24,825 bases of DNA from Abditibacteriaceae bacterium (GTDB lineage Bacteria; Armatimonadota; Abditibacteriia; Abditibacteriales; Abditibacteriaceae): positions 1 through 24,825 of the forward strand of contig JANPJS010000182.1 of NCBI GenBank assembly GCA_031425655.1, read 5' to 3'. Made by a program: the position numbers and the translations under genes. The notes under the pieces were generated by a model that saw only the letters and a list, made by a program, of their open reading frames with translations, made no database searches and was not told the DNA's origin. The first letter of the stretch is position 1. Every line of letters starts with the position of its first letter. Of this stretch, positions 1-24,825 are shown in pieces.

Positions 1-37
1 CCTCTGGGCAGGATCGGCGAAGCCGCCGTGTTCCATT

Positions 38-8678: not shown

Positions 8679-9964
8679 CAATCATCGGCGGCGGTTTGGC
8701 TGGCTGCGAAGCCGCGTGGCAGGCCGCCGAGCGCGGCGTGCGCGTGCGTTTGCACGAAATGCGACCCTCGAAGCCGACAAAAGTGCATCAAACCGGCGAT
8801 TTGGCCGAACTTGTCTGCTCGAATTCGCTGAAAAGCAATCTGCTGGATAAAGCCAGCGGCCTGCTCAAAAGCGAAATGCGCCGATTCGATTCGTTGATTA
8901 TTGCCTGCGCCGACGCTTCGGCGGTGGCGGCGGGCAGTGCTTTGGCGGTTGATCGCGTGAAATTTGCGGCGCTGATTACCGAGAAATTGACGGGGCATCC
9001 CAACGTCGAATTAGTGCGCGAAGAAGCCGAAATTATTCCCGGTTCGCCGTGCATCGTCGCCAGTGGCCCTCTCACTTCGAGCGCGCTCGCCGAGGATATT
9101 CAGCGTGTTTTAGGCGGCGAATTTCTCAATTTTTTCGATGCCGTGGCGCCGATTGTAGACGCCGATTCATTGGATTTCGAGACGCTGTTTTTAGCCTCGC
9201 GCTACGACAAAGGCGAAGCGGCCTATTGGAACGCGGCGCTTTCCGAAGACGCCTACGACACGTTGCGCGAGGCCCTGCTTTCAGCGGAAAAAGCCGAGGC
9301 GCACAACGAAGATGACGTGCCGTATTTTGAAAGCTGCCTGCCAATTGAAGAACTGGCCAATCGCGGTCGTTTAACGATGCGCTACGGGCCGCTACGCGGC
9401 GCGGGCTTAACCGATCCGAAAACCGGGAAATGGCCTTTCGCCTGCGTGCAACTGCGCGCCGAAAACGCCGAATCCACCATGTTCAATCTTGTTGGATTTC
9501 AAACGCGCCTCAAATGGCCCGAACAAACGCGGGTGCTGCGCTTAATTCCCGGCTTGCAAAACGTCGAAATCGTGCGTTTTGGCGTGATTCATAAGAATAT
9601 TTTCATCAATTCGCCCGCCGTTTTGCGCCCGACTTTTCAAACGCAGGCACGCGATGATTTATTCTTCGCCGGGCAATTAACGGGCGTCGAGGGTTATGTT
9701 GAAAGCGCGGCGGCGGGGTTAATGGCCGGTTTCAATGCGGCGCGCTTTTTAGGCGGAAAGCAGCCGCTGGTTTTTCCGCGCGAAACCGTGCTTGGCGCCT
9801 TAGCGCATTACATTACGCACGCCGAAGCGAAGCATTTTCAGCCGATGAACTCGAATTGGGCATTGCTTCTGCCGCTGCCCGATAAGCTGAAAAAAGGCGA
9901 TAAACCGGCGGCGCACGTCGCTCGCGCCCAAGCCGCGATGGATGACTTTCTCAAGGAATTGTAA
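8639..9964 (+). CDS. trmFO: Folate/FAD-dependent tRNA m5U54 methyltransferase TrmFO (Gid)
   Basis: IIGGGLAGCEAAWQAA, HEMRP, AELVCSNSL, FFDAVAPIV, SRYDKG, FESCLPIE, NLVGFQTRLKW, FAGQLTGVEGYVESAA, FQPMNSN. Confidence 0.97.
   Translation: MDNSKLKTQNSKLTIIGGGLAGCEAAWQAAERGVRVRLHEMRPSKPTKVHQTGDLAELVCSNSLKSNLLDKASGLLKSEMRRFDSLIIACADASAVAAGSALAVDRVKFAALITEKLTGHPNVELVREEAEIIPGSPCIVASGPLTSSALAEDIQRVLGGEFLNFFDAVAPIVDADSLDFETLFLASRYDKGEAAYWNAALSEDAYDTLREALLSAEKAEAHNEDDVPYFESCLPIEELANRGRLTMRYGPLRGAGLTDPKTGKWPFACVQLRAENAESTMFNLVGFQTRLKWPEQTRVLRLIPGLQNVEIVRFGVIHKNIFINSPAVLRPTFQTQARDDLFFAGQLTGVEGYVESAAAGLMAGFNAARFLGGKQPLVFPRETVLGALAHYITHAEAKHFQPMNSNWALLLPLPDKLKKGDKPAAHVARAQAAMDDFLKEL
8645..8677 (+). repeat. 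Heptamer tandem repeat (AACTCAA)x4 plus a partial unit
   Basis: aactcaa aacttaa aactcaa aactcaa aactg, inside the cca/trmFO overlap. Confidence 0.9.
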
Positions 9965-11004
9965 TGGCGCGCCCTTCGCCGCTTTCGCCCGACCTCAAAA
10001 CGCTGACGCCCGGTTTGCTGCGGCCTCTGGACGCTTTTATCGCCCATTTGCAGGACAATGCGGCTTCGCGGCACACGATTTCGAGCTACGAAAGCGATAT
10101 TCGACAGTTCGCGGGTTGGCTGCGCGGCGAAGGCGAATTGTCGGCGAGGCAAGGCTGGAAACATGTTTCGCATTTGACGCTGCGGCGCTACGTCACGCGC
10201 TTAAACGAAGATTACTCGCGCCCTTCCACAGCGCGCAAGTTGGCGACATTGAAAGCGTTTTTCAAATGGATGGAACACGAAGGGCGCATCAAAGAAAATC
10301 CGGCGCGCCAAATGCGCGCTCCAAAAACGCCGCCGTCTGCGCCCGATGTGTTGGAAATCGCCGAAATCGAGCGGCTTCTTGAAGCGCCCGATTTGTTGGA
10401 GGCGGCGGGCAAGCGAGACCGCGCTTTGCTCGAAGTGCTTTACGCCACGGGAATGCGCTGCTTCGAGTGCGCGGCGCTTACTTTAAGCGACGTGAACTGG
10501 CGCTCCGGCCAAATCCGCGTGCGCGACGGCAAAGGCCGCGCCGTGCGAACTGTGCTGCTGGGCCGTCCGGCGCAGCGCGCCTTGCGCGATTATTTGCAAA
10601 ACGCACGGCCCGAATTGCTGCGTTACGAAGAGATCGCGCAGGCAAAGTTAAAAACAGACCCGGACGCGGTTTTTCTGCGCCAAGCGCGGCAAAAAGCGCA
10701 AAACAAGGCTCGCCCAACCTGCGATGCGCTGTGGCTGAGCCGTCGCGGCAATCCGATGACGGCGATTGCGCTTTACCACGTCGTGCGCCAATGCGCCCGC
10801 CAAGCCGGCTTGGGCAAATGCGTGACGCCACACACGCTGCGCCATTCGTGCGCGGCGCATTTGCTGCGCAACGGCGCCGATTTGTTCGTGGTGCAGGAAT
10901 TGATGGGCCATCGCACCGTAGCCTCGACGCTGGTTTACGAGCGCGCCAACGCACTGGCCGACACGGCCAAAAGCGCGGCGCTGCGAAAGCGGGCTAAAAA
11001 GTGA
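9964..11004 (+). CDS. xerC: Tyrosine recombinase, XerC-like
   Basis: N-terminal SRHTISSYESD and STARKLATLKAFFKW; catalytic R (TGMR), K (GKG), HxxR (HTLRH), H (MGH), Y (TLVY); TAATG coupling to trmFO, a known trmFO-xerC neighbourhood. Symbol is tentative because the protein is divergent. Confidence 0.72.
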   Translation: MARPSPLSPDLKTLTPGLLRPLDAFIAHLQDNAASRHTISSYESDIRQFAGWLRGEGELSARQGWKHVSHLTLRRYVTRLNEDYSRPSTARKLATLKAFFKWMEHEGRIKENPARQMRAPKTPPSAPDVLEIAEIERLLEAPDLLEAAGKRDRALLEVLYATGMRCFECAALTLSDVNWRSGQIRVRDGKGRAVRTVLLGRPAQRALRDYLQNARPELLRYEEIAQAKLKTDPDAVFLRQARQKAQNKARPTCDALWLSRRGNPMTAIALYHVVRQCARQAGLGKCVTPHTLRHSCAAHLLRNGADLFVVQELMGHRTVASTLVYERANALADTAKSAALRKRAKK

Positions 11005-11103: not shown

Positions 11104-11278
11104 GATTCCCGGCGACTAAAGTCGCGGCTCTGGGCCGGGAACCCTTTGGGTGCTGCCGGGTGTCCCCTGCCCAGAGGGCACCCGGCGCGGACACAGATTT
11201 TAGCTCGCAACTCAGGCCGCGCAGGCGGCCTGGCGGCGGCAAAGCCGCCACGAGCCGCGACTTCAGTCGCCGGGAATC
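11104..11278. repeat. REP/MITE-like palindromic element, copy 1
   Basis: 27-bp inverted arms at 11104-11130 and 11252-11278 (26/27 match), each containing a GCGACTRAAGTCGC-type palindrome; internal hairpins at 11214-11231 and 11235-11249. Confidence 0.88.
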
Positions 11279-13882: not shown

Positions 13883-13939
13883 ATCCAACCCAAGTTGCTA
13901 CCCATCACATTCAACGTAGTGGAGCCGCATTCAGCCCGT

Positions 13940-14202
13940 CATAGGCATCAAGCTAAGGAAAATTTGAAGCAAAATCGGAGCGGAATAGTGTCATTCCGAG
14001 CGAAGTTGGGCCGAAACGCGGGCGCCCTCTGGGCAGGAAGGCGCAACGCAGTCGAGGAATCTTTGCGGCGGCCCCGTGGGTAAAAGTTTCGTCGCCTGCG
14101 CACGACGGCGCGATAAATCGCGTCGCGCCATCGTTCTTCGCTCGGAATGACACACTCTTTTACCCGCACAACCCCCAATTTGGTCTTAGCTTGATGCCTA
14201 TG
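13940..14202. mobile_element. MITE-like element with perfect 18-bp terminal inverted repeats
   Basis: CATAGGCATCAAGCTAAG at 13940-13957 and its exact reverse complement at 14185-14202; flanked by the direct repeat GTGGAGCCGCATTCAGCCC (13919-13937 and 14202-14220); no credible ORF. Confidence 0.75.
13988..14153. repeat. GTCATTCCGAGCGAAG-type palindromic repeat nested inside the MITE-like element
   Basis: Perfect 18-bp inverted arms at 13988-14005 and 14136-14153; contains GTCGAGGAATCT and the palindrome GCGCGATAAATCGCG near 14108-14122. Confidence 0.8.
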
Positions 14203-14216
14203 TGGAGCCGCATTCA

Positions 14217-14319
14217 GCCCCCATCCAACTTCCCCCGGTGGGGGAAGAGCTACGCTTTTCACGGGCAAAATTCCTTGAGAAACCCGGCTCTTCCCCACCG
14301 GGGGAAGTTGGATGGGGGC
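14217..14319. repeat. Long GC-rich inverted repeat, possibly also a bidirectional terminator between convergent genes
   Basis: Arms 14217-14250 and 14287-14319 are complementary apart from one extra G; each arm is itself a TTCCCC..GGGGAA hairpin. Confidence 0.85.
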
Positions 14320-24694: not shown

Positions 24695-24825
24695 ACGCAT
24701 TGCTCCTGGTGCCGGGCGACTGAAGTCGCGGCTCAGAGCCTACGGCTGATTCTGCCCAGAGGGCGCCCGGCCTGCGCCGACACAAGATTTAGCTCGAAAT
24801 TCAGTCCGCGTAGGCGGACTATCGG
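24695..24825. repeat. REP/MITE-like palindromic element, copy 2 (truncated by window end)
   Basis: Shares in order with 11091-11231: ACGCATTG, GGCGACTRAAGTCGCGGCTC, CTGCCCAGAGGGCRCCCGG, GACACA..ATTT..AGCTCG and TCAG.CCGCG.AGGCGG.CT. Confidence 0.85.

Follow-up and report, generated by a model that had tools for sequence, protein, structure and literature searches.

A candidate mobile micro-element of about 20 nt in Abditibacteriaceae, with five nucleotides replaced at its insertion sites

The window, i.e. the whole stretch of DNA analysed here (24,825 nt), is one contig (C182) of a 5.98-Mb assembly that is 97% complete. It contains copies of a very short hairpin element, in the following denoted micro-element, together with the repeats that host them. 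The features are:

1..13, plus strand: micro-element of subfamily A, 3' part only, the rest cut off by the contig end; CCGTG replaced in a host repeat of the CCGTGTCGTTT type
11135..11154, plus strand: micro-element of subfamily C, with an extra 5' C, stem ACCC/GGGT and a TTT loop
11165..11184, minus strand: micro-element of subfamily A, 20 nt; AGGCG replaced in a repeat of the GTCCGCGCAGGCGGAC type, with empty homologues
13988..14153, no strand assigned: host REP-like repeat of the GTCATTCCGAG type, with inverted arms at 13988-14005 and 14136-14153
14019..14038, plus strand: micro-element of subfamily A, 20 nt, boundaries from the genome-wide comparison of filled and empty sites; 18-nt core (14019-14036), then G, then a variable last base (here A); stem GCCC/GGGC, loop TCT
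24751..24769, minus strand: micro-element, 19-nt form (core plus A); CGACA replaced, with three empty homologues

The repeat at 14 kb is flanked by a SpoIIE/GAF gene and a hybrid histidine kinase gene (open reading frames and Pfam matches). The core reported in a preliminary description of this DNA is found exactly at 14019-14036 (+), 11167-11184 (-) and 24752-24769 (-), three matches compared to 0.08 expected from shuffled sequences. A truncated copy is present on the plus strand at 1-13, and a fifth copy in the window, the subfamily C element at 11135-11154 (+), had been overlooked. The four copies reported at that time are indeed intergenic and located inside other repeats, and these host repeats are unrelated in sequence. 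We note that the window also encodes a tyrosine recombinase (9964-11004, Phage_integrase and SAM-like domains) right after a GidA/TrmFO-family gene; in this arrangement it looks like the housekeeping recombinase XerC.

Empty homologues, i.e. related repeats that lack the micro-element, exist for three of the four core sites of the window, each with 5 nt replaced (CCGTG, AGGCG and CGACA, respectively). For the site at 1-13 both filled and empty homologues are present. The junction at 24751-24769 occurs in 6-8 copies in the genome, multiplied together with its host repeat, and its CGACA departs from the rule, described below, that the fifth replaced base is G. At the 14 kb site, five paralogous repeats extend the left flank of the element with CAGT, from which we infer that the element at 14019-14038 would have replaced CAGTG; an empty version of this site was found neither in the genome nor in the five relatives examined. 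The preliminary description had proposed a 21-nt insert with a 3-bp duplication of GAA at this position. The empty site predicted by this proposal is absent, also when one mismatch is allowed. Of 133 junctions, 8 have a 3-nt duplication in the same register, compared to 3.1 in shuffled sequences; such a duplication is not a general signature. The contigs of four sequencing runs include no empty allele for 14019 or 11167. At 24752-24766, 14 nt are missing from one of them, which is probably a paralogous empty repeat. No present-day movement of the micro-element was seen in these runs at the level of contigs. As a separate observation, an 18-nt direct repeat (13920-13937 and 14203-14220) encloses the entire repeat cluster at 14 kb, and one contig of run X1 connects position 13934 directly to 14219.

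The micro-element is abundant in the source genome (G000). The pattern of the preliminary description has 174 exact matches; 223 exact cores are obtained when position 11 is either C or T, 299 cores within one mismatch and 330 within two, and a reversed-pattern control has no match in this genome. The element consists of the 18-nt core plus one or two tail bases, usually 20 nt in total, with a 5' CGGG tail and a hairpin of 4-5 bp. Sequence conservation ends abruptly at both sides of the 330 cores, with at most 0.27 bits over 14 upstream positions and at most 0.19 bits past position 20; position 19 is G in 278 of the 330 cores, and position 20 is free (A 154, T 94, G 70, C 10; n = 328). Exact counts for the subfamilies are A 211, B 36, C 10 and D 6, in addition to 26 long-loop forms. 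Elements of subfamily A are 20 nt and those of subfamily B 19 nt long, and the forms together range from 19 to 24 nt. Across subfamilies the stem changes in a compensatory manner (GCCC/GGGC to ACCC/GGGT) and the loop is extended (GCTTGC and ACTTGT), with the 5' CGGG and a 3' GG retained throughout all stem changes. The hairpin itself is weak and ordinary for its composition (-3.2 kcal/mol, z = -0.16); the structural evidence is therefore covariation, not energy. A comparison with Rfam gave just two sub-threshold miRNA matches, located on a hairpin that neighbours the element, which we attribute to chance. In repeats of the source genome that contain GAATTTATTCGCC, some copies have, at one position, a segment of 23-24 nt with CCGAAAAATC at its end, and others lack it; this segment, which exists in two sequence versions, is possibly another small insertion.

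The micro-element inserts at many unrelated sites, and it replaces exactly five nucleotides, nearly always NNNNG, without duplication. A total of 327 sites were typed in the source genome (321 with flanks) and grouped into 202 junction classes. An empty homologue exists for 82 of these classes and for none of the other 120. Exactly 5 nt are replaced in 71 of the 82 classes, again without duplication, the remaining 11 classes showing 0, 4, 4, 6 (five classes), 7, 10 and 11 nt. In 70 of the 71 classes, G is the base at the fifth replaced position; when related sites are strictly merged, this applies to 29 of 30 (p = 3e-12, for a G content of 36%). A second, independent count based on exact 10-nt flanks yields 5 nt at 68 of 103 sites and 6 nt at 16, where many of the 6-nt readings are 19-nt forms aligned one base off. 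The net gain of the 20-nt form is +15 nt; reading frames are therefore kept. The preliminary description had called for a search for empty and filled host sites, and had named a small number of copies or an identical, integral position within one repeat family as evidence against mobility. Both types of site exist (82 junction classes), the copies are many rather than few, and they occupy 202 different junctions.

Beyond the G, the target shows little consensus: C at the first and a pyrimidine at the fourth replaced position look enriched before merging, and not clearly so thereafter (10 of 30 and 16 of 30, respectively). A is scarce at replaced positions 1-2. There is no support for position 19 being a base kept from the target, nor for a guiding role of position 2 of subfamily C elements for the fifth base, where the data are ambiguous. 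A model in which the element is swapped against donor sequence, leaving scars, was also rejected: foreign 5-mers are found at none of 397 insertion positions, compared to 33 of 2881 controls. The absence of scars argues for copying rather than swapping. A bias with respect to the replication or transcription strand was not observed in the source genome (104 versus 118 and 65 versus 68, respectively), and GC skew is weak there and in genome G011.

The variants at positions 5, 11 and 20 are independent of each other across 117 junctions (p = 0.27, 0.85 and 0.13) and mostly uniform within one junction, hence many separate insertions took place and were followed by hitchhiking. A single host repeat receives insertions at several positions. 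Inside a REP-like or heptamer repeat, the micro-element is also multiplied passively together with its host: one junction has been multiplied to 23 copies in the source genome, and all 9 copies examined in genome G086 represent one junction within a longer repeat. The latter (L264-L271) is about 160 bp long, has long terminal inverted arms and carries one fixed micro-element. In one of its copies, which adjoins a RAYT-like gene (L268:4229-4762, assigned by eye), there is also a diverged second element in opposite orientation.

The surroundings of the insertions are highly repetitive. A thrice-repeated 16-mer occurs within 30 nt of 275 of the 321 sites, compared to 28% of random non-ORF positions and 12% of random genome positions. 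Copies are enriched in repeats and IS genes, and likewise in spare tRNA genes and phages; we ascribe this mainly to hitchhiking and to insertions surviving where the DNA is dispensable. Alternatively, the element may have a genuine preference for DNA that is repeated or mobile. Hairpins, which the preliminary description regarded as the target, are not preferred. In 59 rebuilt empty sites the target G is paired at 0.68, compared to 0.64 for control Gs in the same windows, and hairpin or loop targeting was rejected for this lack of a fold preference. Copies are also found in heptamer tandem repeats and in IS, housekeeping, tRNA and phage genes, and hairpins are therefore not the target. REP-like and heptamer repeats of many unrelated families are present in the source genome. 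The genome also has paralogous small genes, presumably of a GxxExxY type (9) and a four-helix-bundle type (7) as judged from motifs (for example C228:10649-11035 and C193:18542-18934).

The statement that no copy lies in coding DNA holds for the window, but not for the genome, in which 13 of 311 near-exact copies are located inside genes (simple gene caller). For 11 of 12 genic copies checked, the host gene has a Pfam match. The labels comprise AlaRS, TyrRS, a cobalamin-independent methionine synthase domain, an AIRS/ThiL-type protein, a radical SAM protein of the CofH/MqnC type, an aminotransferase, a glycosyltransferase, GlnE, two Calx-beta proteins and a DDE transposase. The TyrRS gene is 15 nt longer than in three of three relatives of the genus, and the copy of G002 represents the 5-nt empty site. 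In the Calx-beta domains the peptide PAQGAP stands in place of one or two residues of the paralogues. The 19-nt copy in the DDE transposase gene causes a frame shift. Most genic copies have a REP or heptamer repeat around them that is in frame in its own right. Such REP-like hairpins and runs of the heptamer GGATGAG are found in frame at L276-L284 (contigs C13, C51, C109, C114, C128, C150, C202 and C267 of the source genome) in housekeeping genes (AlaRS, GlnE and others); these repeats are RPE-like and separate from the micro-element they carry.

The 5-nt replacement is likewise seen outside repeats, namely in the TyrRS gene, a phage portal gene, the Calx-beta paralogues and tRNA genes. Five contigs of IMG/VR match the core. 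The portal gene is filled in L114 and has CAACG at the same position in L115, and CGACG, CAAGA and TCACG in relatives. Three copies in genome G013 interrupt tRNA genes that belong to one array. Here 5 nt, starting with C on the tRNA strand, would have been lost in the two cases that can be rebuilt, as implied by the pairing of the D-stem and the anticodon stem. The array (L093, G013:C45, 303-3518) consists of 19 called tRNA genes and two interrupted ones, one of which has a UCA anticodon. It includes several Leu tRNAs without a long variable arm, and similar short Leu tRNAs are found in a small array of the source genome. Further copies interrupt genes that we take to be IS1-, IS3-, ISAs1- and IS110-like (labelled by eye from motifs), as well as an IS256-like gene (L018, from the unpublished genome G068).

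The distribution of the micro-element is patchy and extends over two phyla, Armatimonadota and Chloroflexota, including their phages. Exact cores occur in 17 of 26 genomes of the family Abditibacteriaceae and in one of 34 other genomes of the phylum. Within Thermomicrobiales, 25 of 121 genomes contain exact cores, 11 of them with at least 20 copies; the carriers include the unpublished genomes G068 and G072 (at least 20 copies) and G175 (3 copies). Two other Chloroflexota genomes contain 28 and 45 copies, and 7 of 401 genomes in an even sample of Chloroflexota have a core. Single matches in other phyla look like chance. The tails are more variable in Chloroflexota. The last base there is A 23, T 5, G 4 and C 1 (n = 33). 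An empty homologue was found at 10 of 58 Chloroflexota junctions, with two clean cases of 5 nt and G and five cases that read as 6 nt, and the sites in G105 would have A as the fifth or G as the sixth base. The empty sites being few and mixed, the rule is not established for this phylum.

Taken together, we consider it likely that these sequences represent a non-autonomous mobile micro-element, with an 18-nt core and one or two tail bases, that inserts at unrelated sites and replaces 5 nt. The counts, the empty sites and the 202 junctions support the original suggestion of an SDR-like, non-autonomous element that moves independently of its host repeats. No coding parent has been found, and action in trans is therefore presumed. 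Specifically, no coding parent that carries the two ends of the element within 15 kb was found on the contigs of the source genome, except for the IS110 split described below, and contig breaks could hide one. The genes adjoining the copies appear ordinary by eye (152 listed of 419 adjacent genes), and the proteins with atypical codons number at least 513. A linked enzyme was found neither in the low-copy genomes nor in the 1.5-Mb carrier G086, and the related phage contigs showed no candidate enzyme by eye. DUF559 has matches in 4 of 5 carriers, the profile having been run on carriers only. NucS was rejected as the mobilising enzyme, with a match in none of 5 carriers.

We tentatively favour, at slightly less than even chances, a mechanism in which a dedicated enzyme opens a gap of 5 nt and a hairpin oligonucleotide, single-stranded, is transferred into it. 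The micro-element would be copied as such an oligonucleotide, and an enzyme encoded elsewhere, other than RVT_1, Y1-HUH or NucS, would recognise its hairpin and tails. The target would be cut just 3' of the G and a second time 5 nt upstream, the 5 nt would be discarded, the oligonucleotide would be joined in the gap, and the filled strand would become fixed by replication. A ragged or untemplated end may then account for the free last base (A>T>G>>C). Since no enzyme has been found, we infer every one of these chemical steps. In its broadest form the proposal would amount to an undescribed DNA-writing reaction, in which an enzyme outside the reverse transcriptase, HUH, DDE and IS110 families exchanges a G-ending patch of 5 nt for a hairpin oligonucleotide, without homology or duplication; this is conceivable, and we hold it with more reserve still.

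The same element could also be written by a different chemistry, namely templated synthesis, in which two nicks 5 nt apart (or a nick and a flap) provide a 3'-OH that is extended on a small RNA or DNA template, with one untemplated base added. This would resemble R2-like, target-primed reverse transcription with deletion at the target. The composition of the last base in the source genome and in Chloroflexota, its independence of positions 5 and 11, the fixed length of the deletion and the absence of donor scars are all consistent with this explanation. However, a polymerase outside RVT_1 would be needed. The source genome (97% complete) has no RVT_1 match, and its called ORFs contain no RT-like motif. 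The co-occurrence with reverse transcriptases that the preliminary description proposed to examine is not seen in 60 genomes, many of them incomplete assemblies and the related ones not independent: RVT_1 is missing in 10 of 24 element-rich genomes, among them the richest and including G000, G001, G002, G074 and G081; of 36 genomes without the element, 14 contain it. In this absence from 10 of 24 carriers, incomplete assemblies included, the micro-element differs from a retroelement that uses target-primed reverse transcription. A template locus with conserved flanks was not seen either, and we regard templated synthesis as rather unlikely, though worth keeping in mind.

It is considerably less probable that a Y1-HUH transposase (RAYT or the TnpA of IS200/IS605) uses the micro-element as a REP-like substrate, with the 5' CGGG acting as guide. 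A tetranucleotide followed by a hairpin resembles the layout of REPs, a cut 3' of a fixed base is HUH-like, and the source genome contains six Y1_Tnp matches. HUH insertion, however, keeps the target, a guide-to-target rule could not be demonstrated, and no micro-element is located beside the Y1 genes of the source genome. The co-occurrence with HUH/RAYT transposases suggested earlier is not observed: among Chloroflexota, 9 of 13 element-rich genomes lack a Y1_Tnp match and 20 of 23 genomes free of the element have one, with the same limits of incomplete and related assemblies. The micro-element thereby differs from REP/REPIN-RAYT systems, as it neither co-occurs with Y1_Tnp genes nor flanks them.

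A search for elements with a long middle revealed micro-elements that a longer element interrupts at positions 9-10 (CT). The ORF of this passenger encodes an IS110 recombinase of the DEDD type (PF01548, E = 3e-17; PF02371, E = 4e-23). The source genome has 10 left and 10 right junctions with the IS, the body of which is mostly unassembled (contig ends, e.g. C65, C70 and C101). All 10 IS copies in G016 (L189, L210 and L244-L251) are complete, with 1282 bp, CT on both sides and a location in subfamily B elements. Further copies are found in G003 (L195, with a variant left half of the micro-element) and G018 (L185). These four genomes are the only carriers among 69 searched; the IS was found in none of the other 65, and in no Chloroflexota searched. 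On contig C64 of the source genome, a truncated left end of the IS (about 21 nt) is left in a micro-element without its right half.

The left end of the IS contains a 9-nt word identical to positions 2-10 of the micro-element, a stem and the complement of positions 9-15; further along, words match the joined ends, the right one being discontinuous. The 1.28-kb IS is therefore predicted to encode a bridge RNA that spells positions 2-15 of the core, as read from its sequence. The predicted guides are conserved in G000, G003, G016 and G018, and the loop between them differs. The right guide of the predicted pair has 5 nt and tolerates a T/C change. Boxes resembling -35 and -10 are joined across the circle junction, as read from the sequence. 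IS621 reportedly targets REPs. The arrangement follows the layout described for IS621, with a left-end RNA and guides for target and donor (PMC11208160, in the parts of that source used here): like IS621 and IS110 elements, the passenger has a DEDD recombinase, a CT core on both sides, a left-end RNA and a 9-nt left target guide, and, like IS621 in the same source, a right guide with core complement and a discontinuous right donor guide. Unlike in IS621, the target is a 20-nt mobile element, usually within a REP, which results in three nested layers. The 14-nt target string has no match in the searched parts of seven supplement files of PMC11208160.

It is highly improbable that, conversely, the 20-mer is a footprint of this IS, which would bring the ends and later excise. 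Every located IS copy does lie between two halves of the micro-element (10 left and 10 right in G000, 10 of 10 in G016), and the predicted guides match positions 2-15. The halves, however, are polymorphic. In G016 they read CTGGG (6), TTGGG (3) and CCGGG (1), and in G000 position 5 is C or T. They also match the subfamily present locally, which is B in G016 and mostly A in G000; the IS therefore inserts into pre-existing micro-elements. In addition, the IS was found in 4 of 69 genomes and is absent from the Chloroflexota searched, its guides miss positions 1 and 16-20, the circle junction lacks the target sequence, and the element-rich genomes G009 and G011 suggest carriage without any trace of the IS. 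The IS110 element hence came after the micro-element and is not its source. Finally, the sequence might not be mobile at all and either belong invariably to a single repeat family or be a GC-rich palindrome that arose by chance. This would agree with the junctions that were multiplied with their hosts (23 copies of one; 9 of 9 in G086), but it can safely be set aside, refuted by the filled and empty pairs and facing 202 junction classes, insertions in unique genes, tRNA genes and phages, and reversed-pattern controls with zero matches.

We also compared the micro-element with known systems. SDR1-8, the small dispersed repeats of Nostocaceae, are said to go back to Elhai et al. in 2008; SDRs reportedly have lengths of 21-27 nt and nest in other repeats. 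By description, these cyanobacterial SDRs appear to be the closest known kind, and the micro-element seems to behave like an SDR: very short, mobile, nested and with a mobilising enzyme that has not been found. In the parts of PMC4390886, PMC5861425 and PMC3116915 used here, SDRs are very short, dispersed, mobile and non-coding, with no known mobilising enzyme, and the same applies to the micro-element, which likewise lies inside other repeats, also next to itself, with filled and empty sites and 19-24 nt. SDR5 inserts precisely between nucleotides 3 and 4 of HIP1 (PMC4390886, same limitation); it is loss-free and specific for HIP1, whereas the micro-element deletes 5 nt (71 of 82 classes) and needs only a G. 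As far as described in the part of PMC5861425 considered, SDRs are confined to Nostocaceae, in contrast to the micro-element, which is found in Abditibacteriaceae, Chloroflexota and their phages and serves as an IS110 target.

REP/REPIN sequences with RAYT (PMC3116915, in part) share with the micro-element a size of about 20 nt, a hairpin with a short 5' tail, hundreds of copies and non-autonomy. Unlike these, the micro-element moves singly and not as a doublet, replaces 5 nt, and has REPs as its hosts. Rickettsia palindromic elements of about 150 bp are MITE-like and found in frame in unrelated metabolic genes (PMC10969869, in part); the micro-element is likewise an in-frame palindromic insertion in unrelated genes, but adds 5 codons instead of about 150 bp. 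It also differs from a MITE of a DDE transposon, as neither a target-site duplication nor a coding parent with shared terminal inverted repeats was found. A description of the sequence or of the 5-nt rule was not found in the full-text literature searched, the coverage of which leaves out the original SDR paper and most subscription journals.

The micro-element bears on the question, raised with the description of SDRs, of how dispersed repeats of 20-30 nt move. It offers a sharp and testable signature (5 nt out, G as the fifth base, 19-20 nt in, a free last base), and its hundreds of sites in many genomes, with carrier and non-carrier relatives, provide material for a comparative search for the responsible gene. 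The results speak against the enzymes that come to mind first. A dedicated enzyme, should there be one, would be a compact tool for writing short sequences into DNA without homology. The proteins of the host are altered as well, with in-frame peptides in two aminoacyl-tRNA synthetases, and REP, micro-element and IS110 form a chain of parasites with three layers, including a natural guide-target pair of a bridge RNA (the RNA being predicted). If the reading as a DNA-writing reaction is true, few known replicators would be as small as the 20-mer, and the recognition needs of the enzyme would have kept it conserved in both phyla; it would add peptides of 5 residues to proteins and provide landing pads for programmed bridge-RNA IS elements.
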